From the NCBI GenBank assembly GCA_963848635.1, contig CAWKEA010000005.1, forward strand, positions 352,585 to 416,584: 64,000 bases of DNA. The letters are read 5' to 3'. A program made the translations under genes and the position numbers. The notes below the pieces were generated by a model. That model did no database searches, had not been told where the DNA came from, and saw only the letters and a list, made by a program, of their open reading frames with translations. Below are positions 4,283 through 60,270 of this stretch, piece after piece. The DNA comes from an uncultured bacterium (GTDB lineage: Bacteria > Patescibacteriota > Minisyncoccia > Phycocordibacterales > PALSA-1337). Every line of letters begins with the position of its first letter. Position 1 is the stretch's first letter.

Positions 4283-5430
4283 ATGAAAATAACCAGTCTG
4301 ATGTCGGTAATCTTGGTCACCACGGTTTCGATCCTGGTGCAAGCAAAACCTATTGTCGTCCCGCCGCCACTGCCTCCGTCATACCTGATCCCGCCGACGA
4401 ATACGGTCAAGAGGACGGTGATTGCCGCCGCCGCAAACACAAAAACGGTTTCGGTAAAGCAGGATGGGACATCTCCTGAACCAGATATTCCTTCGCCTGT
4501 TCCAGACATTCCCGCCCCTGCTTATGTGTTCCCTGCGATCGGCACCTTGCAAAAGGTGTCGGATTCGGCAGCAAAGAGCGTGAACAGGATTTTCCTGTTC
4601 GGATGGGCGTACAGCACAATGGCTCATTCATTTCGATTGGCAGCATATCCTATTTGCCTTCGAATTATCCATTCACCAATAAAGTCGGGATGGATCAATT
4701 CATTGCTGCACAGATAATCTCAAATGCACTCTACTTTGTGGCAACGAATACAAGTGCTACTTTGGACAAGAGCAAAGGGGTACTCATAGAGATTGATTGC
4801 CTCATATCAGCAAACTAGGCAAGTCAGCCAAGATATATTCAGCTATAAGAGCACTATCACGCTGGCTCAATCGAACGGGATATACTCCGTTCCTGATCTA
4901 TCCTGGTTCTCGACGACCTTATCGAGTTCAATTCCCTTCAACGTCCCACTGCCTTTCCCATGGGCACACGTTGAAGTCGGTAACAAGGGCAATCAGTCCC
5001 GACTGAAATTGACGACCCTCATTGGACAAACAATCCAGTCGGTTCGGACGGTTTCCTGTACTTATCAACAAGCGACATAACTAATTCCGCCTCGTCTGGT
5101 GGAAGCTTGTGGATGAAGATCACTCTGTTCGATACGAACAGGTTCCAGATCTTCGATGGTGACGGCAACAGCGTTCCGGAACACCTTATGAAACTCGCCG
5201 TGAGTAAAAATGGCACCGGCGATCTCATCACCGTAACCAACGGCGATTCCGGCCGGGGATTCTACCTGCAAGGTTCGACAAATCTGGCAAACGCGAATTC
5301 ATGGATCAATTGCAGTCCCGTCACCTTTGTTTCCCCGACAAACGGGATGCCAAGCCTCTTCAATGTCTCAAGGACTAATGCCTACATGTTTTTCCGCACG
5401 GCTACGACAAATACACCGCCGACGTACTGA
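4283..5430 (+). pseudogene. secreted beta-rich protein, decayed tandem paralog of 5649..6728 (at least 3 frameshifts)
   Basis: four consecutive ORFs (4283-4717, 4603-4818, 4793-5080, 5107-5430) align colinearly with the 5589..6728 product, e.g. AIGTLQKVSDS, MDQFIAAQIISNALYFVATNTSATLDKSKGVL, SVPDLS.FST.L.SSIPF.VP.PF.WAHVEVG, SLWMKI.LFD..RFQ.F.GDG, and the end FRTATTNTPPTY. Confidence 0.6.
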
Positions 5431-5448
5431 ACAACACTAATAACACAA

Positions 5449-5478
5449 GGCCCGCAACGTAGTGCGGGCCTCTTTTTA
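5449..5478 (+). terminator. rho-independent terminator
   Basis: GGCCCGCAACGTAGTGCGGGCC hairpin followed by TCTTTTTAT. Confidence 0.7.
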
Positions 5479-5556
5479 TCCCCAGGTTACCCACAGAAAT
5501 CGATATTTACGCCCCCTTGCCAAAAACAGAGCAGTATGATATACTACTGGACAGTA

Positions 5557-5592
5557 AGCTCGTTCGTTGACAATGTGTCATACGAAAGTTGA
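5557..5592 (+). promoter_or_regulatory. conserved upstream element, second copy (AAGCTCGTTCGTTGACA...TCATACGAAAGTTGAG)
   Basis: duplicate of 4213..4245; the 15-mer TCATACGAAAGTTGA recurs at 51133..51147 upstream of ORF 51168. Confidence 0.3.
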
Positions 5593-5648
5593 GTCTTCCG
5601 GTTAACCTGCCGTGTTCTCGAACATGGCGCAAAAAAGAAAGGAGTCGT

Positions 5649-6728
5649 ATGAAAACGATTCGTAGTATTGCAGAGATTATTGCAGTGGCGACGACCATCT
5701 TCCTTGCGTCGTGCAAGGAAGCAAAGGCGGCTATCATAGTGCCGACATACTCAATGCCGGCAATCGGCACCTTGCAAAAGGTGTCGGATTCGGGTGCTGG
5801 AAGTATCACGCGAATTATTTATTTCGCGTGGGCATATGGAACAAATGGGCAAGCAATAGCTATCGGGAACATACCTGTAAGCTACATACCAACCACAAGT
5901 CCATTCGCCAGCAAAGCCTTGATGGATCAATTTATCGCAGTACAGACCATTTCTAATGTGCTGTATTTCATAGCGACAAACACAAGCACATCCCTGGACA
6001 AAAGTAAGGGAGTATTAGTTGAAGTTGACTGCCGCATGGTCCAAGACGGTCAAGACAGTCAGGACGTATTTAGCTATAGAAATGCGATCCAACTTACAGA
6101 AAATGTAAGCGGAACATATTCCGTTCCCGACCTTTCGGGATTCTCGACAAGCCTTGCGAGTTCAATCCCTTTCTACGTTCCGGCACCCTTCACATGGGCT
6201 CATGTCGAGGTTGGGTATAAAAACAACCCTTACCCGTTTGAACTTGACGACCTTCACTGGACAAATAATCCGATAGCTTCGGACGGCTATCTATACTTCA
6301 ATGCCGGTGATATAACAAATTCATCGTCATCAAACGGAAGTTTATGGATGAAGATATCCCTCTTCGACAACGGTAGGTTCCAAACCTTCAACGGCGACGG
6401 TGGCAAGCAAATCGCCCCGACGCCGATGGTCCTCGGGATCAGCAACGTGATATCTGGCAGTTACCAGGTCATCGTAAAAAAACGTATCGTTGTTATAGGA
6501 ACGAGCACAAACGTGCTTGTGTCGGTGACAAAGGGTGATGCCGGTATCGGCTTCATTCTGCAAAGCTCAACGAACCTATTGACATGGAGCAATGTCACAG
6601 GGACGAACTTCGTCTCTGCGACGAACGATGTCCAGGGCGCGATACCGTACTCACTCCCCTGGCCATTTACGAATACGAGTACATTCTTTAGGACATTGTT
6701 GGTGACGAATGCGCCGCCAACCTACTGA
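5649..6728 (+). CDS. secreted (possibly lipo-) protein, beta-rich, unknown function
   Basis: AAAGGAGTCGT-ATG Shine-Dalgarno; signal peptide MKTIRSIAEIIAVATTIFLASC; Asn/Ser/Thr/Gly-rich; ends ...VTNAPPTY as does its decayed paralog. Confidence 0.6.
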   Translation: MKTIRSIAEIIAVATTIFLASCKEAKAAIIVPTYSMPAIGTLQKVSDSGAGSITRIIYFAWAYGTNGQAIAIGNIPVSYIPTTSPFASKALMDQFIAVQTISNVLYFIATNTSTSLDKSKGVLVEVDCRMVQDGQDSQDVFSYRNAIQLTENVSGTYSVPDLSGFSTSLASSIPFYVPAPFTWAHVEVGYKNNPYPFELDDLHWTNNPIASDGYLYFNAGDITNSSSSNGSLWMKISLFDNGRFQTFNGDGGKQIAPTPMVLGISNVISGSYQVIVKKRIVVIGTSTNVLVSVTKGDAGIGFILQSSTNLLTWSNVTGTNFVSATNDVQGAIPYSLPWPFTNTSTFFRTLLVTNAPPTY

Positions 6729-9947: not shown

Positions 9948-11546
9948 TTATGCCGCAGGCAATTCGACGATGAATTTTGAGCCTTTGCCTTCGCCCGCTG
10001 ATTCGGCCCAGACGCGGCCATGGTGGGCGTTGACGATCTCGCGCACGATGAAAAGTCCGAGGCCAGTGCCGTGGATGTTCTGCTTGTTGGCATTATCGGC
10101 ACGGGAGAATTTCTGGAAAAGCTTCGGCATGACCAGGGGCGCGATGCCGATGCCGGTATCCGTGACGCTGAATCGTATAGGTATGGTGCCGTCCTTGTTC
10201 GGCACGCGCCCGAGAGCGACCGCAAGTGAGCCCGACGGCGTATATTTGACCGAATTGTCTATGATATTGGCAACGACTTGCTTTAGCTTGTCAGGATCGG
10301 CCGAGACCGTCCATGGGCCTTCGCCGATCGTTTTGAAATCGAATTTCAAGCCTGCTTTATCGATATTCGGCTTCAATTCTGCCACGACATCGCTGACGAG
10401 CGTCTTCATGTCGAGCGGCTCAAGTTCGTATTTCATACTGCCGAGCTCGATGCGGGAGACGTTCAAATAATCGTCGACGACCGACGTCATCGTTTTCGCC
10501 GATTCGAACATGCGCGACACTGCATCGCTCACTTTCCCGGAAACCTCTCCGAGGTCGCCTTCGACGATGAGCGAGGCGTAGCCTTTCATGGCTGTGAGCG
10601 GCGCGCGCAACTGGTGGCTGGCGAACGAGATGAACTCCGTCTTCTGGACATCGAGCTCGCGCAGGCGGTCGTTGGCTTTTTGGAAGTCGATAGTTAATTT
10701 TTCAGCTTTTTCTCGAGATTCTACTTCTTTGATGACACTCCTTATGAGAAAGATGCCGAGCAGGACTGACAAAAGGAAGATGCCTGTATCAAAGACTATC
10801 TCCAGCATATCGTTCGCAAAAAAGATCCTGATCACTAAAACGATCCAAATGAACAGTGTTAAGATCTGCGTTAGGATGTTCTTTGAATTGAGAAACTTTT
10901 GCCAAAATATGAGATAAAATATGGCAAGAATACAAGGAAATATCATTACATTCGCCAATGGCAAGACCTCGATCCCAAATACCGGAAGATACGACGAGCA
11001 ACCCCCGATGAATGCCACGGTAAAGATAACGAATAGATATCGGATCCTCATTCTCTCTGAAGGGTCGCTCGATGAGATGTATTTTTTGAACAGAAGATAT
11101 ATCGAATATGCCGACATGATCACGAACAGTACGATAAAGCTCGTAAAGATATCGGACCTGCCGATATAGTAAAAAGAATTGAATGCGTATCTCACATTGG
11201 TGACGTACAGATTGGTAAAGACATCGAAATACAGGTAGATCCCTCCCGAAAGATATACGAGCGCCAATATCGCTTTTTGGCGTATCTTGAGATACTCGAC
11301 GATGAAGTTGAAGAAAAATACCGGTATGAGGATCACGCCGATTTCTGCCACTTTCCACCAAAATAGCGCATCGGGTTCCAAGGTCGATGTCGCGATCTTG
11401 TAAATGCCAAAGCCCCAGAACGCGACGGCAAGCGAGAAAGCGCTCCAGATGTAATGCTCCAGCTTCTTGCCGCTGATGATGCCATACAGGCCGAGCATCG
11501 TCGAAGAGAATAATATTATCAATCCCACTATTGCGAAAGAGTTCAT
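9948..11546 (-). CDS. sensor histidine kinase (polytopic membrane sensor, HisKA, HATPase_c)
   Basis: six or more TM segments; H-box FASHQLRAPLTAMKGY; C-terminal G1/G2 boxes GTGLGLFIV; start overlaps stop of upstream ORF by 4 nt (ATGA). Confidence 0.8.
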   Translation of the reverse strand: MNSFAIVGLIILFSSTMLGLYGIISGKKLEHYIWSAFSLAVAFWGFGIYKIATSTLEPDALFWWKVAEIGVILIPVFFFNFIVEYLKIRQKAILALVYLSGGIYLYFDVFTNLYVTNVRYAFNSFYYIGRSDIFTSFIVLFVIMSAYSIYLLFKKYISSSDPSERMRIRYLFVIFTVAFIGGCSSYLPVFGIEVLPLANVMIFPCILAIFYLIFWQKFLNSKNILTQILTLFIWIVLVIRIFFANDMLEIVFDTGIFLLSVLLGIFLIRSVIKEVESREKAEKLTIDFQKANDRLRELDVQKTEFISFASHQLRAPLTAMKGYASLIVEGDLGEVSGKVSDAVSRMFESAKTMTSVVDDYLNVSRIELGSMKYELEPLDMKTLVSDVVAELKPNIDKAGLKFDFKTIGEGPWTVSADPDKLKQVVANIIDNSVKYTPSGSLAVALGRVPNKDGTIPIRFSVTDTGIGIAPLVMPKLFQKFSRADNANKQNIHGTGLGLFIVREIVNAHHGRVWAESAGEGKGSKFIVELPAA

Positions 11547-12706
11547 GTGGTGATATGGAAGCCGTCCTCGGGCACTTTGGTTATTATATTGCCTCTACCC
11601 TGCGATATCTTTGTGCCGTTCGGTATCTCCCGCCCAGGCGCGACAACACAGCCACCACCGAGATACACGTCGTCACCGAGACAGCAGCCTAGGAATGTAG
11701 AGCCGGTATCGATTTTTTTCCCTTTATCTATGACAGTAATATTTTTGTGATCAAACCGAAAATCGGTGAGAACTGCCCCTGACCCGACAAAACACCTCTC
11801 GCCAACAAGGCTCGCAGATAAAAAATGTGTCACTGAAAAAACCTCAGACATGAAGACCGACTGTAGGATGTGTCCGTTTAATATGACACATTTGTCGCCT
11901 ATCACTGATGATTCGACGGTAACCGAATTTCCTAAGATTGAATCATTTCCTATCACAGAGTGCCTTACGACGGTATTCGCTCCAATAATCACATTATCTC
12001 CAATGATTGATCCTTCGACGTACGCTGTATGGTGTATATCGCAATTCTTTCCAATCGTATTCATCGTGCTCAAAATTTTCCATTTGTTGCGCGACATTTT
12101 TGTGACGGCAGACAAGAACAAACGTATTTTCTTGTTCTCCTCGACTTCTTTGAGGTGCGACAAGATATTAATTAAATTTGCTGACCACAGATTTGACCAA
12201 TGATGCATCTCAACAATCATTCTCGTGTCATAAGGCGCAACATATTTACCATCGATACACATATGCTCAGGAAAGACGAGAGTTTGTGTCGAGACATCTA
12301 GATCAAACAAAATGGGCTGAACCTCCTGTCGAGATAATGGACGGACATATGAGAGACCGTATTGTATGTGCCCACCCACATCTCTTGAGTTTTGCGTCGC
12401 AACAATCGTTTTTGCAGTATAGTTCCCTTTTTTGACAGTGCATATGGTGCTTGTAGCCATATTTTTTGAACGATCAGTGAACTCTTTGAAAAGTGCTTTG
12501 GTTAAGAAAACACTGCCGTCAAGAATAATATGATCATTCAGATCATCGATCTGTGATATCGATTCCTTTCGCTCATATTGAAAACCAAGCGACATCGCAC
12601 AAGCAATTTGATGATCAAGGATTGACAGGTTTCCAACCATAACATCAGCTGCCGATCTTCCAAACGGGCTGATTTTGTTGCTGTTTGTGATAATGTAAAC
12701 TTTCAT
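11543..12706 (-). CDS. left-handed beta-helix (hexapeptide repeat) protein, putative sugar-nucleotide or acyl transferase
   Basis: C-terminal half rich in [LIV]-G-x-x-x-x hexapeptide repeats (IGDNVIIGANTVVRHSVIGNDSILGNSVTVESSVIGDKCVI); N-terminal domain not confidently assigned. Confidence 0.45.
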   Translation of the reverse strand: MKVYIITNSNKISPFGRSAADVMVGNLSILDHQIACAMSLGFQYERKESISQIDDLNDHIILDGSVFLTKALFKEFTDRSKNMATSTICTVKKGNYTAKTIVATQNSRDVGGHIQYGLSYVRPLSRQEVQPILFDLDVSTQTLVFPEHMCIDGKYVAPYDTRMIVEMHHWSNLWSANLINILSHLKEVEENKKIRLFLSAVTKMSRNKWKILSTMNTIGKNCDIHHTAYVEGSIIGDNVIIGANTVVRHSVIGNDSILGNSVTVESSVIGDKCVILNGHILQSVFMSEVFSVTHFLSASLVGERCFVGSGAVLTDFRFDHKNITVIDKGKKIDTGSTFLGCCLGDDVYLGGGCVVAPGREIPNGTKISQGRGNIITKVPEDGFHITT

Positions 12707-25280: not shown

Positions 25281-26580
25281 CTATTCATATCTCAAAGCCT
25301 CGATCGGGCTCTTTTTGCTCGCCTGCCGCGCGGGATAGCCGCCAAAGACGAGGCCAATGACTGCAGAGACAGTGATGCCGAGGATAGCGCCTGACCACGG
25401 AAAGACGAATTGCCAATTGATCGCAAGAGCATGCGAAAGGATAAAGGCGATCAGAAACGCGAGACCAGAGCCGAGCAGAATGCCGACGACACCGCCGATA
25501 ACAGTCAACAAAACCGCTTCGAGGAGGAATTGCGATAGAATGTCGCGATTTTTCGCACCGAGCGCCTTGCGCAAACCGATCTCGCGCGTGCGCTCGGTCA
25601 CGGAGACGAGCATGATATTCATGATGCCGACGCCGCCGACGAACAATGCGATAGAGGCGACTGCAACGAGGAACCATGTGAGCGCCGAGGTGATCGTGCC
25701 GAGAGTATTGGCCAAACTTTGCTGCGTCTCGACAGTGAAGTCATCCTTTGTCGGATCGGTTATGCCGTGCGACTCCTCGAGAGTCAATTTTATATTAGCG
25801 GCAGTGACCGGGACAGTCTGGTCGGATGATGCTTGGGTTATGACGCGATTGTAATACTTTTGGCCCGTGACGTACGTCATGGCTGTCGTGTATGGCATGA
25901 TGACCATCGAGTCAAAGTCGAACAATGTGCCCCCGCCTGATTTCGGCAGCACAGCGACGACGCGAAAATTTCGTCCCTTTATCGTTATGTTCTGATTATA
26001 CGGATCCTGATTCTCAAACAGATAATTCGCTACATCAGCTCCAATGACGACGACGCTCGACATAGAATCGACATCGCTCTGGTCAAAGAACTGCCCTTCC
26101 GAAGGAGTGATGTTGAAAATGCTGGCCATGAGGTCAGTGCCGCCGAATATTGTGACCTGGTAAGTGTTCGGGCCATATGAAGCGGCGTCAGAGCCGATGA
26201 CCACAGGCATGATGGATATGAGGTCGGGCACATTTGCTTTGCTCATGAGAGCGGTCACATCCTTTGGCTTCAGCGAGTCGCTGTAGAGCGCAGAGGCGCC
26301 TGCTCGACGGGCTCGTGGATACTTGGCCCGGAATGATGGCGATAGTGTTCGTGCCGAGGCCCTGGACCTCGCCAAGAATAAGGTTCTGCGCGCCCGCCCC
26401 GAGCGACACGACCAACATGATGGCCGTGATGCCGATGACGATGCCGAGGATGGTCAAAATCGACCGCGAACGGTTCGTGCGCAGGCCGGTGAATGAGGTT
26501 TTAAATAAATGGCGGATGGTCATGGTTTTATTGTGTAAGCAACTTGAAAGCAGTATTAAATGCTTCATCGGCAGTTTCAA
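25281..26580 (-). CDS. ABC transporter permease, FtsX/MacB family (frameshifted near 26330)
   Basis: N-terminal TM plus periplasmic domain in ORF 26188..26580 continues in ORF 25281..26375 after IIPG; C-terminal four-helix FtsX domain. Confidence 0.7.
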
Positions 26581-28885: not shown

Positions 28886-30431
28886 TTAGGAACCAATATA
28901 CGTCACCACTTTGTCTCCAGGCTTCAAGCCAGAGAGGATCTGCACTGAGCCATCGGAGCCTTTGAGGCCTGTCGTGACGGGAACGCTTGAATACATCAGA
29001 CCATTCGTGGAGACGAGCCGTACATCGGTTGATGTTGAAGTGATCAAGAGCGCACGATACGGGATCTCGAGGACATTATCTGTCTCGTGGGTCAATATCT
29101 CGATATTCGAGGTCATGCCGCTCTTTATACGGCTGTCCGGAGAGATGAATTGGAGGGTGACCTTGTATGTCGGTACGCCCTCGAGAACGGTTTCGGCAGG
29201 ATCGATCATGACCACCTTCTCTGGGAAGTTAACGTATGCGCCGTATGCATCGAGCGTGCTCGACGCTAGGTCTCCGACAGCCACCTTGGCGATGTCAGCC
29301 TCGGCGACGTATGCCTCGACTTTGAATCCGCTATTCTGCACTGCAAAGCCGCTCTGCCCCGGCGCCACATATTCGCCGACATTAGGGTCTTCTTGCGTGA
29401 CGATGCCGTCGATAGGCGAAACGAGAGTATCTTCCGCGAGGACAGCTTGCACCTGCGCGACTTTTGCAGCCTGGGCGGCGATCGCATTTGGAGTCGATCC
29501 GGATTGCTGGAGCGTGAAGGTGTTTTCCGCCTGTGCATATCCAGATTCAGCGCTCTTTAATTCCGTATCAGCCGCAGAGATCGTACCGATCGCCTGGTTC
29601 AAAGGTAGAAAGAGATGTATTCATGGTCGCCACGGCAGAATCGATAGCGGATTGCGGTAGACCAGAGTTGCCAGGGCTCAGATTGTTCACAATGACAGAA
29701 AGATCGGTCAAGTAGCTCTTGATAGTCGATAGATATCCTTTCGCATTAGAGATGAGCTGGCTCGTATTGGTCGCATCTGCGTTGCTTGAATCGATCTGCC
29801 AGTCATCGAGCACGGTTGCGATCTGCAAACGTTCGTTATTTATGGAAAGCGAGATAGTGTTCGATTGTGTGCGCACATTTATCGTCGGATTTGCAGTCTG
29901 TGGATTGGTAAAGAAGGTATCGCCATAGTTCACGACAGCACTTTGTGCCTGCACATAGCCGGTATGTATGGCATTTACCGCATCAGATAGGGCGTTTGCA
30001 AGGCTTGTGGAAGCTGAACCGACGGCAGATTGATCTGCGGCGTATTGTGCCGACGTAAGGCCGCTCGACATATCGGCGAGAGTCGCTTGTGCCGATGCGA
30101 CCGCCGCTTGGTCGTCGGCGCTGTCGAGAGATGCGATGGGATCGCCTGCCTTGACTGTATCGCCGACATTGACGTAGATCTTTGAGATGACGCCCCCTTT
30201 TTCAAAGGCGAGCGCGGCAGACGAGACCGGCGAGACAGTGCCAGTGACGCTGACCTGCTCAACCACGTTGCCGATCTGTGCAGTCGCATACTGGAAATTC
30301 GGCTTCTTCGGCTTTTCTTTTTCATAGACGATACCAGCGATGATGAGAACGATGACGATGCTCATGATGACCCATTTGTTTTTCAAGTGACGGAAGTGCG
30401 ATTTTTTCATATGCAAAATTATAACATACAA
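28886..30431 (-). CDS. HlyD/MacA-like periplasmic adaptor (membrane fusion protein), frameshifted near 29570-29600
   Basis: N-terminal TM and coiled-coil in ORF 29568..30431; beta-barrel/lipoyl-like C-terminal half in ORF 28886..29602; ORFs overlap 35 nt. Confidence 0.65.
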
Positions 30432-38248: not shown

Positions 38249-39287
38249 ATGTCGTTCAAGATATCATACCAAATAAAAGATAAAGACATCAGAAATCTAG
38301 AACTTATATCTAAAACTGATGGGTATTTACAAGTATTAAGAATGAACCCCGTATGGTCAACTTTGCTCGAAAAAGAAGCTAGGATAACGGAAGCGGTAAG
38401 TTCCATCGGAATAGAAGGAACGATAATTTCCATTGAGCAAGCAAACGCAATCACTGTTGGTGAAGAAAACGTACATGTTGGGGAAAAGGAAAAGAGAGAA
38501 TTTCTCGGCTATTATGAGTCATTAAACTATATTAGAGGTGAAATCGATAGCCCACTAACACTGCAATTACTCCTTAAAATCCATGGAAAGATTACAGCTG
38601 GTGATCCAAAAGCTTCTCCTGGCAAAATAAGAACTGATTTGAGGGCTGTCGCAAAAGATGGAAAAGTCATATACAAAGCACCTCCACCAGAACACCTCAG
38701 TTTTCTTTTAAGAAGCTTCATTGAATGGTTCAATAATACCGCTTCAGACAAGGCTATTTCACCAGTTATAGCGGCTGCAATATGTCATTTTTGGTTTGTA
38801 TGGATACATCCATTCTGTGATGGTAACGGGAAGAGTTGGAAGATTACTTACAACGTTTCTACTATTGAAAAAGAAGTCTGAGGGAGTTAAATATTTTGCT
38901 CTCTCAAATGATTACAATAAGGAAAAAGATGGATATTATGACTCTTTAAAAAAGACTAACGTATGCGATCCAGAGGTTCCATCAATGAATTTTGACAACG
39001 ACTTATCACTCTGGATAACTTATTTTATATATTCATACTTAGTTCAGATGGAAGATATAAAAGAGGTTACAAATCGGATATTACAATTGAATATAAAAAT
39101 TGAACATCTCAGAGAGGATGGCTTAATTACTTCAACTCACAACAAAGCACTCGCATTTTTATCATCAAGAAAAAAGACATCTTACCAAGAATTTGAAGGG
39201 GCACTTAAAATTTTCTGCTCCGAGAGTAAATCAAATATTAAAACCCCTCCGCTCAGCACGTATACTTGTCGAGGAACAGATAGGTAA
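38249..39287 (+). CDS. Fic/Doc family protein (frameshift inside the Fic motif near 38845)
   Basis: HPFCDGNG in ORF 38249..38881 continues as RVGRLLTTFLLLKKK in ORF 38796..39287, together forming HPFxDGNGRxxR. Confidence 0.65.
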
Positions 39288-41260
39288 AACCGTATGGTTT
39301 AAGTTAGGATCCCCAGAAGACGAATAACCTGCAGGACATTGGCTAGGATTAGTGTACGTAGTTGTTGGGTAAGGATAATTAGTAGGACTCATAACAGTAA
39401 AGTAATTGTCGCTGTAGTCGTAGGCTTGAAGCACTGGTTCCGGAACACAACCAACATAACCAGCAGGACAAGTCGTACCGGCAGGAAGCGAAGTTTGCAA
39501 GGTAGCATATATCTTGTCTTGTCCAAGATAATTCGTAGGCAGAACTACTTGGAACGACTTCAACCCTGTGGTGCCGTTTATCGAACCGCCCCCAAGCGAA
39601 TATCCATTGCTTAGATCGCCGTTACCATTTGAATTTTCCAAGTAAAGAGCAACGCCGCTAGTGGTGACTTTCGTCGGGTCTCCGGTGACATTAACTGTAA
39701 CTGTTTGGGTTGTTCCTGCTTGCCACACCTCTCCTCCATTCGGCGAGACGATGTTTATGTCAGGCAAGTTTGAAGTCTGGCTTGAAGTTATCGTGAACGT
39801 ATTGTCGCTCGAATCGCAATTGCTCGTGCCTGATTAGGCAGATTTGAACAGTGTACTGGCCGTCTGGAATCGATTGAGATGTGCCAGAATAATTCGTCGC
39901 TGTGCCCACATTCCAATTATATGAATTCTGATTGATCGGAATATTCGTGGCGATGGTATAAGGGGCATACGCGATCGCCGGACAAACCTGCGTCGTGCAG
40001 ACATACTTTTGAGTGATCTTCAGATCTGCATACGCTGCCGCGAAATAATACGGCGACGTCCATGTTATCTGTTGGTTCATGCCGCGAGCCCATACTTCTC
40101 CGCCATTCGGTGAGATGATACGGAGCGAGCCTGCAGTATTGCTGCTGCCAACAACGACCGTCGAGCTTGTCTGCGCCTGCAAACCAGAACTATTTCTCAC
40201 GGTAAAAGTGACTGTATAGGTACCAGCGCTCGAGTATGAATGGGTAAAGGTCGTGCTCTGATTGAACTGAGGCGAAGCAATGCCTGACACATATGCTGCA
40301 GTCGGATTAACCACATCTCCCCAATCCACAGAATAATTTAGGGTTCCATTCAAAGGATCAGTAGCATGCACCGTCCATGTCCCCGTTTGATTTACAGTGA
40401 GCGACGTCGGCGCATCTATGCCGCTTATGACGGGAGTTTGGCTGTTCGAAACGCTCGATGAAGAGATGGTAAAGTTGTTGTCGCTCTCGGCACACTGCGT
40501 GCTGTTGTTTACATTTGTCGGACATATTTGGATTTTGTATTGACCAGTAGTCGCTGTACCGCTGCAATATGAAGTTCCGTTAGAATTCGTGTACATGGTA
40601 GCAAGCGCTGGGCATCCGAAAGATTGAATATTTCCGACATTCCATACATACGAACCTGAATTCAGGCTTACTCCGCTCGCAATAGTTTGTGGTGCGAGGA
40701 CCGCTATCATGCAGCGCGGATTTGCTCCCGGCAACGCACACGCAGGCAGCGCATGCTCGAGCTTGATGTCTCCTGTTTGGTTGAGAATGTTTGAAAGATC
40801 CTGTCCAAGTAATATTTTGCGTCGTCCCCAAAGCCCACGCCTCGCCCCCATTCGGCGAAATCACGCGAAATGAAGTTCCAGAATTACCACCCTGGTTGCC
40901 TCCGTTACCATAATGACTGCTCCAATAGGCGCGAGTGATCGGTCCAAAAAACCCGTACGCCGGGAGACCCGCTGCGGTCTGATATGCTTCTACGGCAGCC
41001 ATCGTCTGAAAACCATAATATCCCTTTGTATTTGCACCGGAACTTATGGACGGTATGTTGTAGCCATTGGCGATGAGCCAAGTCTGTAAATTAGCAACAT
41101 CCTGACCTGTGTTGCCAAGGCGGAGATCGTTGTTGAAGGTGTAGGTTTGGGCCTCTGTTGTAGTGCCAACAACGCAAACGATTGCAAAAAAGAAACAAGC
41201 GAATATAAGCGATTTTTTCATGTTTGTATATTGGGTTATGCTTGATGACGAATGATTCAA
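39231..41260 (-). CDS. secreted protein with peptidoglycan-binding domain and repeated Kre9/KNH-like Ser/Thr-rich modules (two frameshifts, near 39815 and 40845)
   Basis: signal peptide; PG_binding_1-like LRLGNTGQDVANLQTWLIANGY...YYGFQTMAAVEAYQTAAGL; repeats (R/I)ISPNGGE(V/A)W..G..Q.ITW and GQY.(V/I)QIC across three overlapping ORFs. Confidence 0.55.
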
Positions 41261-52266: not shown

Positions 52267-52845
52267 ATGATCGCCAAACTCACCGGCATTGTTTCGGATA
52301 TCGGCAACCGGTTTGTCGTCTTGGGCGTTGGTGGCGTCGGCTACAAGGTATTTGTCACCGATGACACTCTCCATCGCCTAAAGATCGCTGACGAGGCTTC
52401 CCTCTTGACCTATCTAGCCGTTCGCGAGGACGCGCTCGACCTGTACGGTTTCCCTTCAAAAAAAGAAAGGGATTTTTTCGAGCTCTTGATCGGCATTTCG
52501 GGCATCGGCCCAAAGAGCGCTCTGAACATCCTTTCGCTCGTATCTGCTGACGCCCTCGCCTCTTCGATTCAGACCGGCTCTGTGGCGCATCTCGTAAAGG
52601 TGTCGGGCATCGGCAGAAAGACGGCAGAAAAGATCGTGCTGGAATTGAAAGACAAGCTCGGCGGCATTTCCGACGGGTCAGGAGCATTCTCGGCCGGCAT
52701 GTCGAGCGATATCGATGCCATCATGGCTTTGCAGGCTCTCGGCTATGATTCAGACGAAGCGAGAGAAGCCTTGAAGAAAGTCGGGAAAGACGTGCGGGAC
52801 ATAGGCGAAAAGGTGAAAGCGGCGTTAAAGGTATTGGGGAAATAG
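52267..52845 (+). CDS. ruvA: Holliday junction DNA helicase RuvA
   Basis: MIAKLTGIVSDIGNRFVVLGVGGVGYKVFV; HhH motifs ISGIGPKSALNIL and VSGIGRKTAEKIV. Confidence 0.8.
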   Translation: MIAKLTGIVSDIGNRFVVLGVGGVGYKVFVTDDTLHRLKIADEASLLTYLAVREDALDLYGFPSKKERDFFELLIGISGIGPKSALNILSLVSADALASSIQTGSVAHLVKVSGIGRKTAEKIVLELKDKLGGISDGSGAFSAGMSSDIDAIMALQALGYDSDEAREALKKVGKDVRDIGEKVKAALKVLGK

Positions 52846-52937
52846 TGGGGATAAGTGTCCATTGACAAAATAAGCTTTGAATGCTAAGCTTTCCGCAGAA
52901 CGTGCAGGTAGTGAACCAATAAATTTGAAAGGAAAAT

Positions 52938-53312
52938 ATGAAGATAATCGTAAAAATGAGGCCAGTTAAACTGACTCTATTTGTAACCCTGGCGGCAGTA
53001 TGCATCTCATGCATTTACGGAGCGACTGTCCTCTCCGTCCTCGTTTGGGGTCATCAGGCTGCGTTTTATAACGGGGCCGGACACATGAAAGACGGGACGG
53101 TGATCAAGGCCAGTTTCGAGTGGGGATGGTTTGGACGAGCCGTACTTGTTACGATCGTCAAACCAACCTTTGAATTCTTGGCGACATTTGCTATCGGGAT
53201 GTTTACCCTGAAAGTATTAAATGCGGCAAGCGAAAAAAAATCCCGCTTGCCGCAACAGCAGCCATCGTTCCGATGGTATCAATTCCGGTGGCATCACAAG
53301 CCACAGACCTAA
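52938..53312 (+). CDS. hypothetical membrane protein
   Basis: 124 aa with N-terminal TM segment; followed by a strong terminator. Confidence 0.35.
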   Translation: MKIIVKMRPVKLTLFVTLAAVCISCIYGATVLSVLVWGHQAAFYNGAGHMKDGTVIKASFEWGWFGRAVLVTIVKPTFEFLATFAIGMFTLKVLNAASEKKSRLPQQQPSFRWYQFRWHHKPQT

Positions 53313-53332
53313 AGCGGCACCAAGCCGCCCAG

Positions 53333-53365
53333 GACCCGACTGATTCGTCGGGTCTCTTTTTTTTA
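53333..53365 (+). terminator. rho-independent terminator
   Basis: GACCCGACTGATTCGTCGGGTC hairpin followed by TCTTTTTTTTT. Confidence 0.75.
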
Positions 53366-53448
53366 ATGAGAATGTATTTCACACATAAATACAGATTATG
53401 ATGTGTGTCAATATGTGATACAAAGTATTAATAAGGCATACTTTAGCC

Positions 53449-54771
53449 ATGTTTGAATCGTTTCTCTCAAAAATAAGGCTTTTCATTCCCAAATTTATCT
53501 TTAGTTTTTTTAATCCCCCGTATCATTATTTGCTCGCGTTTTTCGGCGCTCTCATCTATCGCTTCCCTTCCCGAAAGATCAAGGTGATCGCCGTCACCGG
53601 CACAAAAGGCAAAAGCTCGACCGTAGAGATATTGAATGCGATCCTCGAAAAGGCGGGCAAAAAGACCGCCCTGACGAACACCATCCGTTTCAAGATCGGC
53701 GATGAATCTCGGCCGAACCTGTACAAGATGTCCATGCCCGGCAGATTTTTCATGCAAAAATTCTTGCGGGATGCGGTCGATGCGCGATGCGACTGCGCTA
53801 TATTGGAGATGACATCGCAAGGCTCGCTCACCTATCGTCACAGATTCATCGACCAGGACGTTTTCGTCTTTACCAATATTTCACCGGAGCATATCGAGGC
53901 GCACGGCTCGTACGAAAAATATCTGAAAGCAAAGCTCAACATACTATGCGATGGTTTGGCAAAGTCAAAAAAAACGGGCCGATCGGCTATCGTGAACGGC
54001 GACGACAAAGAGAGCCAGCATTTTTTAGACTGCTTGTATGGAAAGGATATACGCAAGCAAGATATAGCCTGAGTGATGCCGAGCCTTATGATATAAAGAA
54101 GGAAGGCATAGATTTCACCTGGCATGGCAAGAAAGCAAGTTCGCCTCTTTCCGGTCTCTTTAACCTGTACAATATTTTGGCGGCGGCTACAGCGGCCAAA
54201 GGCTCTGGGTATTTCGGACGACGTCATCCTTGGTGCGATTAAAAGATTCGGCGATATTCCGGGTCGCGTTGAAAAGATAGAGGCGAAAGGCCCCGATGGC
54301 CGCGCGCAAGATTTTACGGTCGTCGTCGATTACGCGCACACGGCCGACTCGCTCGAAAAGCTGTACAAAGTCTTCCGGCCTGATCCGGAAGCGCCGCGCG
54401 GCAACAAAAGACTCATCGCGGTGATCGGAGGCACCGGAGGCGGTCGTGACCATTGGAAGCGCGTCGAAATGGGCAGGCTCGCGGATACGTATTGCGACGA
54501 GGTGATATTGACTGACGAGGATCCTTATGACGAAGATCCAAAAAAAATCGTAGACGATGTGGCCAAAGGGATTGTCTCGAAGAAACCAAAGGTCATCATG
54601 GACCGAAGGCTCGCCATCCGCGAGGCGATCGCCCTCGCAAAAAAAGGCGACACGGTCTTGATCACCGGCAAAGGAACCGACCCTTATATCATGGGGCCAT
54701 ATGGGACAAAGACGCCCTGGAGCGACGCGGATATCGCGCGCGAAGAGCTTGAAAAGGCCTGGGTAAAGTAA
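53449..54771 (+). CDS. murE: Mur ligase, MurE-like (two frameshifts, near 54065 and 54195)
   Basis: VIAVTGTKGKSST P-loop; ILEMTSQG; DYAHTADSLEKL and GGTGGGRD C-terminal domain; product spans ORFs 53449-54072, 53787-54242 and 54124-54771. Confidence 0.65.
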
Positions 54772-54799
54772 AGCGGCCGGCAAGCAGGGCTCCGAATCG

Positions 54800-54810
54800 T
54801 CCCCCCCCCC
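54800..54810. repeat. C10/C11 homopolymer about 35 nt upstream of the mutM start
   Basis: TCGTCCCCCCCCCCTTCATT. Confidence 0.8.
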
Positions 54811-54844
54811 TTCATTTTAATTTTTCAAATCCATATTTATCATC

Positions 54845-55747
54845 ATGCCCGAACTTCCCGAAGTGCAAACGACAGTCAACGGACTCAATAAACGGATACA
54901 AGGCTTGAAAATCAGCGACGTTTGGACAGATTATAATAGCCCGTTTCATACAGGAAAAGACTCGATAAAGGACCCTGCTTACTTCAACTATTTCAAGAAA
55001 GAAGTGACAGGCGCAAAAGTGCTCGGCGCGTCGAGGTTGGCAAAGAACGTCCTTGTAAACATACGGAAAAATAACAAGGATCTTGTTATTTTGATCCATA
55101 TGAAAATGACCGGGCACCTCATGTACGGCGATTACGACCGTGCAGATCCCTTTAACCGTTTCATTCATCTCGTCTTCACTTTCAACAATGGCAAAACTCT
55201 TGAGCTTTCCGACATGAGAAAATTCGCCAAGGTGACGCTCATTTCAAAAGATCATATCGCGGAAGGTTTGGAACAATCCCTTCACCTTGCACATATCGGT
55301 CCGGATCCGCTCGATAAAAGTTTTTCTTTTCCTTTATTTAAAGAAAGAACAAGCAAGAGACCAAACGGCCGCATCAAGACTGTCCTTATGGATCAGAGCA
55401 TCATAGCCGGCGTCGGCAATATCTACAGCGATGAGGCCTTGTGGCGGGCAGGCTTGAATCCGGAAGAACGGGTGAGAGACATCCCTGATCTATCTTTAAA
55501 AAAGCTGTATGCGGGTTTGAAAGATGTTCTAAAAAAAGGCATCGACTTCGGCGGCGATTCGATGTCCGACTACCGCAACATCGATGGCAAGCGAGGAAAA
55601 TTCCAAGGACAGCATAAGGTATATAGGAAGACCGGACAGACATGTTCAAAACCAGGTTGCAAAGGGATCATCTTGAGAAAAGTGGTCGGCGGACGGAGCG
55701 CGCATTTTTGTAGCGTGCATCAACGTTTGCTCAGATCAAGGGAATAG
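54845..55747 (+). CDS. mutM: formamidopyrimidine-DNA glycosylase
   Basis: N-terminal MPELPEV catalytic Pro2-Glu3; C-terminal zinc finger C..C...C..C. Confidence 0.85.
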   Translation: MPELPEVQTTVNGLNKRIQGLKISDVWTDYNSPFHTGKDSIKDPAYFNYFKKEVTGAKVLGASRLAKNVLVNIRKNNKDLVILIHMKMTGHLMYGDYDRADPFNRFIHLVFTFNNGKTLELSDMRKFAKVTLISKDHIAEGLEQSLHLAHIGPDPLDKSFSFPLFKERTSKRPNGRIKTVLMDQSIIAGVGNIYSDEALWRAGLNPEERVRDIPDLSLKKLYAGLKDVLKKGIDFGGDSMSDYRNIDGKRGKFQGQHKVYRKTGQTCSKPGCKGIILRKVVGGRSAHFCSVHQRLLRSRE

Positions 55748-56221
55748 ATCAAAGAGCCTGAAAAGGAACACTCCCGCGGCCACTCCGACATTCAACGATT
55801 CCTTCTTGCCCTTCATGGGTATCTCAGCGACGACATCAGCTAGTTTGAGCACATCTTTCGAGACGCCCTCAACCTCGTTGCCAAGGACGACTAACGTCTT
55901 TCTTTTAGCCTTGATCTTTCTATAATCAATGGAGTTCTTTGCCTGTTCGAGGGCTATGATAGCGAACCCTTCTTTCTTCAGATTTTTTATAAGAGGAACC
56001 ATCGATTCGACATGCTCCCAAGCGATCATATCCTCAGCGCCGAGAGAGACTTTCGCGAAATCTTTGCGTTTTCGGCCGAAGCGATCAATCGGAACCGGCG
56101 TTGTGCCGGCACAATATATCCTTGATATACCCAGCGTCTCGGCCGTGCGGAATATCGAGCCGACGTTATGGACGCTCCTGATATTGTCTAAGGCCACGCA
56201 TACGCGATGAGATGATTTCAT
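55736..56221 (-). CDS. SpoU-family RNA 2'-O-methyltransferase (TrmH/TrmL-like)
   Basis: ALDNIRSVHNVGSIFRTAETLG and LVLGNEVEGVS motifs; start taken at MKSSHRV. Confidence 0.7.
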   Translation of the reverse strand: MKSSHRVCVALDNIRSVHNVGSIFRTAETLGISRIYCAGTTPVPIDRFGRKRKDFAKVSLGAEDMIAWEHVESMVPLIKNLKKEGFAIIALEQAKNSIDYRKIKAKRKTLVVLGNEVEGVSKDVLKLADVVAEIPMKGKKESLNVGVAAGVFLFRLFDLFP

Positions 56222-56334
56222 GATTGGTGGAAATTGAAAAATGTAAAGACAGCAAGAGCCAAAAAAATGATACCGATGGTAAAAATGATCTTGCCGCCCA
56301 TAATCTTCCAATATTTCAATAAATACCATATACT

Positions 56335-56736
56335 ATGCCCATACCAATAACAAGCATCATTATGCATACCCTTTCGATCTTCCCGTATCTTCTGTCGTAT
56401 CAACAGCTATCGCCGTTCCTCATCCGCATCGTCCTCGGCGTGACTCTGGCGTATTTCGGCTATCACAAGACATTGGGCAACGGTCAAAGCTCTGGTTCGA
56501 ACAGCAAGATATATGGGGTGCTCGAGATAGTCGTCGCCGTCTTTCTCATCATCGGACTTTGGACCCAGCTTGCGGCCATGCTGAATGCCATCATTCTCGT
56601 CATCAAGCTCGGTTTCAAAGCAAAAGAAAAGAAATTCCTGACCGATGGAGTGAATTATTATATCCTGCTCCTCGTCATGGCGATTTCGCTCATATTCACC
56701 GGTCCAGGATTCTTGGCGATTGATTATCCGCTATAA
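56335..56736 (+). CDS. DoxX-family membrane protein
   Basis: 133 aa, four TM helices, LRIVLGVTLAYFGYHK. Confidence 0.5.
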   Translation: MPIPITSIIMHTLSIFPYLLSYQQLSPFLIRIVLGVTLAYFGYHKTLGNGQSSGSNSKIYGVLEIVVAVFLIIGLWTQLAAMLNAIILVIKLGFKAKEKKFLTDGVNYYILLLVMAISLIFTGPGFLAIDYPL

Positions 56737-56779
56737 AGTGCTATATTTTGCGGTATGCGTCCATATGCGGCGCATATAC

Positions 56780-56852: not shown

Positions 56853-56853
56853 C

Positions 56854-57891
56854 ATGGAAAACAAAAAATTAGAGCTCGTCCTGTTCTCGGCGCTCATCGT
56901 CATCCTGACGGTCCTGATGTTCTTCGTATTCCGGCCGTTTATCAGCATCATCGTCCTCGCGGCGGTGCTGTCAGTCCTCTTCCATCCGCTCAATGAGCGG
57001 CTCGTAAAGGCCTTCAAAGGAAGAAGGAGCCTTGTCGCCTGCCTACTGGTCATCGTCGCGTTCGTCTTTCTGATCATACCGATCATGTTCTTTGGGCTCC
57101 AGATATTCGGACAGGCGCAAAGCTTCTTTTCCTTGACGCAAGTCGACCAGGGACAGTATATTCAGTCTTTCGAGCAGAACGTGGACACGCTCGTCCAACA
57201 TTTCATGCCGAGCTTCTCTCTGGATATATCAGGCACGGTCGACAACATCCTATCCTATGTATCCGCGAATATCGGCTCCCTTATTTCCCAGACCGCATAT
57301 GTGTTCTTTCAGATATTCTTCCTGCTGTTGGCTTTCTTTTTCTTCCTCCGAGACGGAACCGCAATGCTCAATTCGTTCATTTCATTGAGCCCTTTCGAAA
57401 AAGAGCAGAATAAAAAGGTCATCGACTCGACTTCGATGATGATCATCTCCGTAATCCGAGGAACGCTCTTTGTCGGATTGATACGGCTGATATTGATAAC
57501 GATCGTCTTCTACCTTCTCGGCATTCCCGACGCGCTTCTCTGGGGAAGCATCGGAGGGGTCATTGCCATGGTCCCTGGCCTCGGCACGTTTTTCGTCATC
57601 GTTCCAGCTTGTCTGTACCTTTTGCTGTACGGTAACATATTTCTCGTCATTGGCATGGCCGTCTTTGGCATCCTCATATTCTTCTTCGTGGATAATGTGC
57701 TTTCGACGCGCTTTTTCGGCAGAGGCTTGCATGTCCAACCGCCATTCATCCTCTTTTCCATCATCGGCGGCGTTATTTTCTTCGGCCCGCTCGGCTTCAT
57801 ATTCGGCCCTATAGTCTTGTCGCTCTTCATCTCGACAGTGAACGTCTACAGGATCCTCGTATTGCACAAGCCGTCGGATGCCGTCAAATAG
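56854..57891 (+). CDS. AI-2E family transporter (UPF0118/PerM-like permease)
   Basis: polytopic membrane protein; start taken at MENKKLELV immediately after the tRNA (the listed ORF start lies inside the tRNA). Confidence 0.65.
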   Translation: MENKKLELVLFSALIVILTVLMFFVFRPFISIIVLAAVLSVLFHPLNERLVKAFKGRRSLVACLLVIVAFVFLIIPIMFFGLQIFGQAQSFFSLTQVDQGQYIQSFEQNVDTLVQHFMPSFSLDISGTVDNILSYVSANIGSLISQTAYVFFQIFFLLLAFFFFLRDGTAMLNSFISLSPFEKEQNKKVIDSTSMMIISVIRGTLFVGLIRLILITIVFYLLGIPDALLWGSIGGVIAMVPGLGTFFVIVPACLYLLLYGNIFLVIGMAVFGILIFFFVDNVLSTRFFGRGLHVQPPFILFSIIGGVIFFGPLGFIFGPIVLSLFISTVNVYRILVLHKPSDAVK

Positions 57892-58618
57892 TCAACGCGA
57901 ATTCTTCTAGAGACAGCGAGATGTCTGAAAGCCCTCGGCGGGAATCGTGGGCCATGCATATGAGGCTTTCCAAAAGCTCGCCGCTTTCCTTTTCTGAAAA
58001 ATTATTCGCGTATGATTTCGCTCGCGAAAAGGGAAATTCTTTCATGCCGGCTTCTTTTGCGTTCTTTGCTTGTTTGGCCAGGGCTATTGATTTCGCTTGC
58101 CAAAAGAGAGTGCCATGGATCTCTTCGGGCGAAATATCCTCGAGAAGGGCGCGGCGATAGAGGACCCATAGGTTCTTGCGGTCTCGCTTGCCCATTGCTT
58201 CGGCGAGCGAAAACACATTGAATCGCTCCTTTGATTTCGCGGTCGCCATCTTTTGCGCGGTGGTTTCCTCGAACTCCTGGACTTTTTCCGCGTGCTTTTC
58301 GAATTTTTTCAAGGAATCCCCGTCGAGCTTGCCCTCAAGGACGACAAAAACGTTCGGCGATGCCGCTATTTTGTCTATTTGTTCAAGGAAAACAGGCGCA
58401 ATATCCTCATCATCCATCAAATGGTCGAGTACGATTATGAATTTATTCTCAAAAAGCCCCTGACCGCCGCAATATTCCTCCAATTCCGCCTGATCCCAAT
58501 GTTCCGCGTCCATTTTGAAATACGCAGCATCAGGCTTCTTTTTCTTTAACGAATCAGCCAGCTCGTGCATTTTGAGCCGTGATTTATCAGTATCCGCGCC
58601 GTGAAGGAGGTAGATCAT
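57884..58618 (-). CDS. holA: DNA polymerase III delta subunit-like (HolA) short form
   Basis: MIYLLHGADTDKSR N-terminus and overall helical clamp-loader delta architecture; weak assignment. Confidence 0.5.
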   Translation of the reverse strand: MIYLLHGADTDKSRLKMHELADSLKKKKPDAAYFKMDAEHWDQAELEEYCGGQGLFENKFIIVLDHLMDDEDIAPVFLEQIDKIAASPNVFVVLEGKLDGDSLKKFEKHAEKVQEFEETTAQKMATAKSKERFNVFSLAEAMGKRDRKNLWVLYRRALLEDISPEEIHGTLFWQAKSIALAKQAKNAKEAGMKEFPFSRAKSYANNFSEKESGELLESLICMAHDSRRGLSDISLSLEEFALTI

Positions 58619-58627
58619 GAACGTATT

Positions 58628-60270
58628 TTAACTCTTCCCCCAGTTCTTTCCAATGCTACAGCCGACGACGAGCGGCACGCCCTTTGTTTCATCGAGGGAG
58701 ACGACTGTCTCCATTATCTTCTGTATCTCCGGTACGACCTTGGTCAAGATGTCATCTCGTACTTCAAGCACAAGCTCGTCATGCACTTGGAGGAGCAAGT
58801 AAACCGAATTCTCAAACTTGTTCGTTCTTTATATATTCAAATATCTTGACCATGGCGAGCTTGACGATGTCGGCTTCGGTGCCTTGGATCGGCGCATTTA
58901 TTGCCATGCGCTCGGCGCTGGCACGGATAAATGGGATAGGTGAAGCGATGTCGCCAAAATAGCGCCGGCGGCCAAAGAGAGTCTCGGTGTATCCTTTCCT
59001 CTTTGCTTCTGCTTTGACCGAATCGAGGTAGCGCGCGAGGCCGCTGAATGCTTGAAAATAATGGTTGTAGAATTCTTGCGCTTCGGGACGCGTGCCGCCC
59101 AAATTCTGCGCGCAAAGCGTTCACCCCCATGCCGTACATGACGCCGAAATTGATGACTTTCGCCTTGCGGCGCATCTCGGGCGTGATCTGGTCAGCCGGC
59201 ACGCCGAAGACCTTTGCGGCAACCTCCCTATGCACATCGCGGCCGCCTTTAAAGATCTTCATGAATTCCTCGTCATTGGCCAAAAATGCTGCGATGCGCA
59301 ATTCGATCTGCGAATAGTCGAGCGATACGAGAGAGAAGCCTTTTTCTGCGATGAAAGCGTCGCGGATGCGGCGGCCCTCTTCTGTTTGGATCGGTATATT
59401 CTGCAGATTCGGATTATTGGATGACATGCGGCCGGTCACCGCGCCCGTCTGATCGAACGTCGCATGCAGACGATCGTTGTCATCGAGAAGCGGCGGGATC
59501 GCGTCGATATACGTGCCGACAAGCTTTGCCAACTGCCGATAGTCGAGGATCTTTTTTACGATAGCATGCTCGGACAGCTTTAAAAGCTCGGACTCTTTTG
59601 TCGATCGGGCGCCGCCTGCAGTCTTCTTCATCCTGGGCACGCTCAACTGCAGCTTGTCGAAGAGAATGTCGCCGAGCTGTTTCGGTGAATTGATGTTGAA
59701 TTCTTGGCCAGCGAGCTGATAAATACCTTTTTCAAGCTCGCGAATCTTGCCATTATATTCCTTTGACAATTTTTCCATATATGCGCGGTCGATCTTTATC
59801 CCGCGCTCTTTCATGGCGTCGAGGACAGGTATAAGAGGAAGCTCGACCTCGTCATAAACTCGCGACAAGTTGCGTTGCTTTATCCCTTCAAGCACTGCTT
59901 TTTTCGCATCATCCCAATCTTTTGCATTCGTTATCGCGAGGACGTCCTCGTAGGTTGGACCTGTGTAGTTCGAATCGAGAAGCCAAGCGCCGACAGCGAT
60001 CGGACGGAGCTCCTCAAGCGGCACTGGCGATTCGATGGCTTTCTTCTTCTCTTTTTTAGCTGGAAGATCCTCGTCATATTCGAGGGTTGCAGAATTTTCG
60101 GCTTTTCCTTTACTTTTATTTTTTATATTCCCTTCATCTTTGAGTTTTGAATTTTGAGTTTTGACATTCTCACCCCTTCCACCACCGCTTTCACCCTCGC
60201 TCCAAGCGTCCTGAACTCGAGCTCTTTGAACAAAGTTTCTATTTTGCCGAAGTCGAAATCCTCGCGCCAT
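58628..60270 (-). CDS. polA: DNA polymerase I polymerase domain, Taq-like without active 3'-5' exonuclease domain (frameshifts near 59100 and 58805)
   Basis: motif A SLDYSQIELR, motif B RRKAKVINFGVMYGMG, then out-of-frame continuation ...LFGRRRYF...INAPIQGTEADIVKLAM... and final LLQVHDELVLEV...GKNWGKS. Confidence 0.75.

Follow-up and report, generated by a model that had tools for sequence, protein, structure and literature searches.

Single-base frame breaks in rplB, polA, murE and accessory genes of a Patescibacteria contig as probable consensus errors of the assembly

Frame changes inside bacterial genes are known from several settings, with which a 64,000-nucleotide stretch of an uncultured bacterium is compared here (contig CAWKEA010000005.1 of GenBank assembly GCA_963848635.1; the window), where one-base frame breaks interrupt genes as conserved as rplB, polA and murE. 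Decaying genomes such as that of Mycobacterium leprae or those of recently host-restricted symbionts carry nonsense mutations, deletions and drift after inactivation, with their essential genes retained, and bacteria of the candidate phyla radiation (CPR) have reduced genomes and host-dependent lifestyles. Programmed +1/-1 frameshifting, as in prfB and dnaX, and the rescue of genes by poly(A) slippage in insect endosymbionts require either a conserved slippery or shifty site or A/T tracts of some length, and relatives have the same shift. Mononucleotide tracts are where real slippage mutations and phase variation mostly occur. Residual insertion and deletion (indel) errors in long-read assemblies reportedly fragment gene calls, a point said to have been made by Watson and Warr in 2019. 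Metagenome-assembled genomes from long reads are well documented to show such fragmentation, above all when coverage is under about 40x (PMC9262707, the paper by Sereika et al. (2022) which also describes the IDEEL test), and the proovframe preprint (10.1101/2021.08.23.457338) documents residual-indel frameshifts in genomes of this kind.

The window resembles the residual indels of nanopore or Pacific Biosciences continuous long read (PacBio CLR) assemblies in its one-nucleotide lesions and in the split or truncated open reading frames (ORFs) of otherwise conserved genes. As with those indels, which are commoner in low-coverage metagenome bins, the lesions are gone on comparison with accurate assemblies and one-nucleotide edits give full-length proteins. 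It differs from the classic description of long-read errors, which is one of long homopolymers, in that the errors sit at runs of 1-3 nucleotides, have an insertion to deletion ratio of 11:5 and are patchy, a pattern which would fit a consensus from newer chemistry or from low-coverage, strain-mixed data. With Mycobacterium leprae and the host-restricted symbionts the window has in common a large share of frameshifted genes, but in it essential genes are broken, the sequence past the breaks is essentially the same, and genomes at 99.8% identity do not have the lesions. With prfB, dnaX and endosymbiont slippage it has in common a one-base frame change inside a functional gene, but its sites have no shift-prone motif or long tract and the shifts are not conserved. 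In all likelihood the frame breaks are single-base errors which were left in the consensus of the assembly and are not a real biological feature; the source assembly was most likely built from a metagenome with reads of a long-read type and represents a Paceibacteria (Patescibacteria/CPR) genome.

Frame breaks in rplB, polA and murE and their counterparts in near-identical contigs

Genes are densely packed in the window, which comes from a Patescibacteria (CPR) genome of the Paceibacteria/Taylorbacteria type. Fifteen one-base coding frameshifts were counted in its roughly 64 kb, and 8 of about 72 genes (a tally made from the ORF map) are broken, with one frameshift each in rplB, the macB permease gene and macA, two each in murE, a Fic gene and a gene for a secreted PG-binding/PKD protein, and three each in polA and in a paralog at 4283-5430. 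This density is far above that of a correct bacterial genome. Each break was checked by reading the site in three frames and by alignment to intact homologues, and at each site the conserved protein, past a short overlap, resumes in another of the frames of that strand. All breaks listed in the original prediction are present, at most about 50 nucleotides from the coordinates given there. Exact positions for rplB, polA and murE come from near-identical contigs, while approximate ones for macB, macA, the Fic gene, the secreted protein and the paralog come from more distant homologues. The conserved housekeeping genes among the broken ones, rplB, polA and murE, are single-copy in the window and intact in every relative examined. 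Further frameshifts considered at 1575-2788, 47049-48886, 48745-49519 and 15804-18583 were rejected, as these stretches look like normal neighbouring genes whose Pfam domains are complete wherever a family was detected. No conserved gene was found to be interrupted by an in-frame stop alone in the ORF map, the homologue alignments and a noisy automated stop screen judged by eye; this screen was swamped by off-frame and antisense ORF matches, and the stops in true coding frames with recurring support lay at gene boundaries.

Reference contigs were reached by exact-protein look-ups of intact neighbours, or, for the contig L004, through the polymerase protein P0001. The Logan contig L001 from run ERR10755936 is 99.77% identical to the window over 52842-56748, and its only indels against the window are the two murE sites at 54051 and 54198 and one in a spacer at 54800, where an intergenic C homopolymer (54801..54810, + strand), which was absent from the original prediction, has the length C10 in the window as against C11 in L001. 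L004, another Logan contig of this run, is 99.84% identical over 58464-64000 and its only indels are the three polA breaks. A third Logan contig, L085, is 99.95% identical over 4.3 kb (29886-34190) with intact-looking genes and 0 indels, and an ENA contig with a MEGAHIT-style name, L002 (ERZ27248494), is 98.6% identical. The Logan comparison covered 15,064 nucleotides and yielded 6 indels, all of one nucleotide, of which five are the polA and murE frameshifts and one is intergenic. As all coding indels detected in this way are frameshifts visible in the ORFs, the reading of ORF structure caught every coding indel in the stretches compared, and intact-looking stretches there are intact.

The Mur ligase gene murE (53449..54771, + strand) lies in three pieces. 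A C is missing at 54051, where the window has ATATA-CGC and L001 has ATATACCGC, and an extra A is present at 54198, where GCCAAAGG stands against GCCAAGG; these are the breaks which had been noted at about 54065 and 54195. L001 carries an intact murE of 440 amino acids with Mur_ligase_M and Mur_ligase_C, and the corrected window gene also yields 440 amino acids, 439 of which are identical to the L001 product. The polymerase gene polA, coding for a 5'-3' exonuclease and DNA_pol_A (58628..61112, - strand), is divided into a 5'-3' exonuclease piece, the main polymerase piece, a 102-residue piece and a 66-residue piece. On the gene strand the three one-nucleotide edits are GTG-AGA against GTGCAGA at 60171 (one base missing), GCGC[G]CAG at 59109 and AAG[A]ACG at 58826 (one base extra each). 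The latter two had been seen at about 59100 and 58805, and the junction at 60123..60270, which had been listed as possible, is a real break due to the missing C at 60171. L004 carries an intact polA of 827 amino acids (protein P0001, 99% identical), and correction of the window gives a protein of the same length with 824 of 827 residues identical to P0001. Among the matches listed, the polA homologues are overwhelmingly full length (780-860 amino acids); the frame-merged protein matches DNA polymerases labelled "Candidatus Pacebacteria / Patescibacteria / Parcubacteria" at 84-90% and one Logan protein at 99%. A motif common to the error sites was considered, as CAGAAT stands beside two of the polA sites, but was rejected, about one shared 6-mer being expected by chance among 21 site pairs.

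In rplB, the gene of ribosomal protein L2 (33552..34401, - strand), an additional base stands at 34321/34322 in the window (GG[A]AGCC, gene strand), which places at 34322 the break formerly given as about 34310. Three-frame reading of the window yields MKHYPPFTKSRRHMTTISFKDHVTVSE and then, in the next frame, PYKPLTVGFKRDAARNNQGRITVRH, while L002, which does not have the extra base, reads MTTISFKDHVTVSEPYKPLTVGF...GRITVRHQGGGHKK in a single frame. The gene is also in a single frame in 80 of 80 GTDB genomes of related species, matched by tblastn from residue 1 to about 280, and the corrected window protein has 282 amino acids with Ribosomal_L2_N and Ribosomal_L2_C (Pfam). The start of rplB is ambiguous (34362-34401): the L002 gene call begins at MTTISF, and the upstream sequence MKHYPPFTKSRRH, which is similar to the usual L2 N-terminal motif KPTxPGRR, is kept in relatives, in which the tblastn matches start at residue 1.

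Six single-base corrections, all taken from near-identical independent contigs, thus restore full-length polA, murE and rplB, and the six coding lesions (two in murE, three in polA, one in rplB) are absent from independent assemblies at 98.6-99.8% identity. As these near-identical assemblies carry the tested genes intact, the breaks are almost certainly consensus errors. The preference of the original prediction for such errors over decay is borne out by the intact alleles at 98.6-99.8% nucleotide identity and by the restored proteins. The organism encodes intact rplB, polA and murE.

Genuine genome decay, in a strain accumulating frameshift pseudogenes with housekeeping genes among them, is highly improbable on these data. 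The reduced genomes and host dependence of CPR bacteria, the share of 8 broken genes in about 72, and the derivation of the reference contigs from a non-identical strain would be in its favour, but the single-copy genes rplB, polA and murE are intact in every relative, the lesions are not shared, and three breaks in polA would have to have arisen at only 0.16% nucleotide divergence. The mixed lesion types and the drift after inactivation which decay leaves were not found either: neither in-frame stops in conserved genes nor larger deletions were seen, and the protein downstream of the breaks is 99.6-99.8% identical. Housekeeping genes are broken as readily as accessory ones. Against the 99.8%-identical contigs the ratio of indels to substitutions is about 1:2, and 5 of the 6 indels in the Logan comparison are coding in a genome which is about 90% coding by our own estimate. 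Coding sequence therefore received its proportionate share of indels, and no purifying selection acted on them. Natural indels against L002 and against L005, the GTDB species-level genome with the best rplB match (94% identical), avoid coding frames, and the one natural one-nucleotide indel against L002 is intergenic (35649). The substitutions against L001 and L004 comprise 5 synonymous and 7 non-synonymous ones, mostly conservative.

Frame breaks in the accessory genes

The gene of a MacB-type ABC permease (25281..26523, - strand) contains one base too many within 26295-26310 (gene strand CCGTCG[A]GCAGG). The intact 440-residue permease of L005 (91-96% amino acid identity) aligns to it as two segments in frames -2 and -3 which join at 26302, the homologues P0122 and P0123 align likewise, and the break, formerly put at about 26330, is a +1 change at about 26302. 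In the merged protein the MacB_PCD profile runs unbroken across the junction (1-204 of 207), and FtsX is uninterrupted too (Pfam). The HlyD-family adaptor gene macA (28886..30431, - strand) carries a surplus T within 29593-29609 (gene strand ACCTT[T]GAAC). Residues 7-283 of the intact 520-residue L005 protein align in frame -3 and residues 283-520 in frame -1, joining at about 29601, so that the break once given as about 29580 turns out to be a +1 change of TT to TTT at a place where L005 reads NTSLSTLNQA. The merged protein has a lipoyl-like N-terminal part, and HlyD_D23/HlyD_3 in its C-terminal part (Pfam). The inserted A of macB and the inserted T of macA were placed by codon-level comparison with L005, which is a syntenic sister species.

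A gene on the + strand (38249..39327) codes for a Fic-domain protein with a C-terminal winged-helix-like tail and has extra bases within 38822-38842 and 39201-39221. The first, known already as a break inside HPFxDGNGR at about 38845, is real and lies at about 38835 (+1, GGG[A]AGAG); it turns HPFCDGNGR into HPFCDGNGK with a frame change, and RVGRLLTTF resumes after HPFCDGNG in the next frame. The second (+1), which had escaped the original prediction, lies in an AAAA/TTTT run at about 39210, before the C-terminal helix-turn-helix-like tail. P0124, a homologue of 429 amino acids with 62% identity, aligns in three successive frames with its residues 31-244, 226-347 and 325-390, and the merged protein matches the Fic domain profile (Pfam) from 1 to 93 of 93 in one stretch.

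The neighbouring secreted repeat protein (39231..41221, - strand) has extra bases within 39822-39840 and at about 40785-40800. Its breaks, expected near 39815 and 40845, are present at about 39833 and 40795 and are both +1. The label of a Kre9-like protein given to it before did not hold, as Pfam returned no Kre9 match at E<=0.01 and PG_binding_1 and PKD instead; the layout is an N-terminal PG_binding_1, PKD domains and repeated 'ISPNGGExW...ITW' modules. A homologue from L041 (56-57% amino acid identity) aligns with residues 37-182 in frame -1, 186-503 in frame -2 and 505-520 in frame -3.

The broken paralog of the secreted-protein gene at 5646-6728 occupies 4283..5430 on the + strand and lies in four pieces. 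The presence of breaks in it had been stated before, and three-frame reading and alignment to its neighbour give three one-nucleotide frameshifts, with the edits placed approximately: 4613-4629 (about 4621, -1, AAA to AA), 4795-4829 (about 4805, +1) and 4988-5017 (about 5000, -1). When the frames are merged the resulting 378 amino acids are colinear with the intact neighbour of 360 amino acids in a global alignment. No Pfam family was found in the 4283-5430 paralog. The two genes are tandem signal-peptide paralogs outside Pfam families and have in common the blocks AIGTLQKVSDS, YFxATNTSxxLDKSKGVL, HWTNNP and SLWMKIxLFD and a C-terminal PPTY.

It is very probable, from these homologue alignments, that the organism encodes intact macA, macB, Fic, secreted repeat protein and paralog genes as well. 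A concatenated query of Fic and macB returned from the protein collection only homologues at 62-65% and no near-identical Fic reference; these matches are useful for the placement of frames and not for exact edits. A concatenated query of 2320 amino acids (macB, macA, Fic, secreted protein and paralog) gave one weak match, a weak negative, as low-complexity candidates probably swamped it. Exact-protein look-ups of the holA-like gene, the MacB ATPase, the kinase-like gene at 26601-27098, tuf, rpsS, fusA and the intact paralog had no match.

Character of the indels and points against a pure artefact

The indel differences number 16 when the intergenic C run is included, and all are of one nucleotide, with 11 bases extra and 5 missing in the window. 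They are mostly found at runs of 1-3 identical bases, the exceptions being the C10 tract and the AAAATTTT stretch of the Fic gene. No coding break lies in a run of more than 4 nucleotides, while transcriptional slippage and phase variation call for tracts of about 8 nucleotides or more. Runs of at least 6 nucleotides agree with the references in 27 of 28 cases in the compared regions (the sole mismatch is C10/C11), which argues against slippage mutation and phase variation. Neither an X-XXY-YYZ heptamer nor a prfB-like motif was found at the seven exactly defined sites.

Recoding by programmed ribosomal frameshifting, by transcriptional slippage or by a non-standard genetic code has therefore a probability close to nil. 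Nothing specific speaks for it beyond the position of the Fic break at about 39210 in the AAAATTTT stretch and of the polA break at 60171 near an A-rich linker; the shifts are conserved in no homologue, not even at 99.8% identity, which refutes recoding for the six sites with near-identical references, and the seven exact sites have no heptamer or prfB-like motif. A reassignment of stop codons (code 4 or 25) is irrelevant, as every interruption is a frame change and not an in-frame stop.

The sites are clustered along the window: 8 of the 15 gaps between successive sites are shorter than 1 kb (P about 0.002 against uniform placement), and error-free runs of 21 kb and 13 kb lie between others. 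In the compared regions the distance from the indels to substitution differences is shorter than under random placement (P about 0.014-0.024), and polA takes up 5 of the 6 substitutions and all three indels of the 5.5-kb L004 comparison. This clustering and the closeness to substitutions suggest patches of low-quality or strain-mixed consensus. Such patches would stem from low local coverage or from collapsed strain heterogeneity and not from classic homopolymer miscalls. The concentration in long homopolymers which marks the older nanopore, 454 and IonTorrent subtype was not observed, and the good homopolymer performance would fit the newer nanopore chemistry described in PMC9262707.

Several points weigh against the interpretation of all breaks as consensus errors. 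The insertion excess and the few homopolymer errors are unlike the textbook nanopore R9 pattern, so that any attribution to a platform would be tentative. The reference contigs come from one or more other strains, with 0.05-0.2% substitutions from the window, so that the window's strain could in principle differ genuinely from theirs. At nine of the fifteen sites, those in macA, macB, Fic, the secreted protein and the paralog, the homologues at hand have about 50-96% amino acid identity, and near-identical sequences for these nine accessory-gene sites were not found in the collections searched. The evidence consists of assembled contigs and homologues and falls short of read-level proof. Lastly, the Logan contig L003, which is 100% identical to the window over 34322-35636, terminates exactly at the rplB indel, its end being the very last base common to the window allele and the intact rplB allele, and the next Logan contig of ERR10755936, L085, begins 131 nucleotides further on, at 34190. 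With 8 contig ends and 16 sites, a contig end within 1 nucleotide of a site has a coincidence probability of about 0.006 by a rough estimate. The read set or assembly graph of ERR10755936 thus probably branches at 34322, and the rplB allele of the window, or another variant, may be present in its reads. On the simplest reading real strain variation begins at 34322 and the consensus error of the window arose in a mixed tract. A literature search found no published mention of run ERR10755936.

The other end of L003 adjoins a naturally hypervariable tract at 35637-35759, comprising the 3' end of rplC and a spacer, in which about 24 substitutions and one indel against L002 fall within about 120 nucleotides, while the remaining 2 kb compared with L002 differ at no more than about 7 places. 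The tract is apparently recombinant or variable among strains.

A mixed origin, in which most breaks would be errors and a minority would be polymorphisms that truly exist, or pseudogenes of recent date, in part of the population, is to be weighed too and is unlikely. Its candidates are the Fic gene, the secreted repeat protein, the paralog at 4283-5430 and the rplB site at the L003 end. It gains from the heterogeneity in ERR10755936 which the L003 end at 34322 and the L085 restart at 34190 suggest, from the lack of a near-identical intact copy of Fic, macB and the other accessory genes among the sequences found, from the dispensability of the island with the Fic and secreted-protein genes, which the sister species L005 lacks, and from the intact tandem copy of the paralog. 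The breaks in the accessory genes, however, match the proven errors in being of one nucleotide, mostly +1, in short runs and followed by open downstream frames; conserved GNGRVGRLL follows directly after the Fic break, nonsense mutations and larger deletions are missing, and patches of error are a better fit than recent inactivation for genes with two to three hits each and no further decay. A biological form of this idea, in which some of the breaks (the rplB site, the island-borne Fic and secreted-protein genes, the paralog) are standing frameshift polymorphisms or a rapid switch-off of surface or effector genes in a natural CPR population, is slightly less probable still.

Split operons, low-GC islands and consequences for the record

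The S10 operon is split between rplB and rpsS by about 9 kb (24331-33555), in which an aminotransferase gene, a DAP-decarboxylase-like gene, macA, the MacB ATPase gene, two small genes, the MacB permease gene and a histidine kinase gene are found. Across the 80 related species genomes the distance between rplB and rpsS ranges from 17 nucleotides to more than 8.5 kb, by which this gap looks like an insertion hotspot, and the macA-macB cassette stands in the same gap in L005, L034, L055 and L075. A misassembly behind the interrupted ribosomal operon was considered and rejected: short-read genomes of relatives have the same insertions, and an arrangement common to them makes the S10 insertion real biology. 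The str operon is split as well, by a 3.2-kb island with the secreted PG_binding/PKD protein and the Fic gene between fusA and tuf (38147-41362). This gap is only about 250 nucleotides in L005 and ranges from 143 nucleotides to 6.5 kb among relatives. A further 2.3 kb or so lies between rpsG and fusA (43527-45830).

The window has an overall G+C of about 47% and, at 2001-4000, 12001-18000, 26001-28000 and 38001-40000, islands of low GC in which the value drops to 0.31-0.42 from about 0.48-0.52 in the rest. They hold accessory genes, such as those of an epimerase/NAD_binding_4 protein, a nucleotidyltransferase, a 7TM histidine kinase and the Fic protein, and others, and were probably acquired horizontally. 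Three histidine kinase genes lie at 9948-11546 (- strand), 14089-15774 (+ strand) and 24438-25220 (+ strand), two of them with an N-terminal HisKA_7TM, and no adjacent response regulator was noticed beside the three. An Rfam scan of the window gave two tRNAs and no other family.

As a record in protein databases the uncorrected sequence could split 8 genes into about 23 fragments, and pseudogene calls from the present assembly should be disregarded until it is polished, for which the public near-identical short-read contigs are usable as a surrogate reference. As the errors are patchy, error-free stretches tell little of neighbouring ones. The value of the finding is that of a warning on the record, a matter of data hygiene. 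Read literally, the record would suggest a CPR bacterium which is losing or lacks rplB, polA and murE, and if left uncorrected it could feed false claims of a reduced replication, translation and cell-wall capacity and inflated pseudogene counts.

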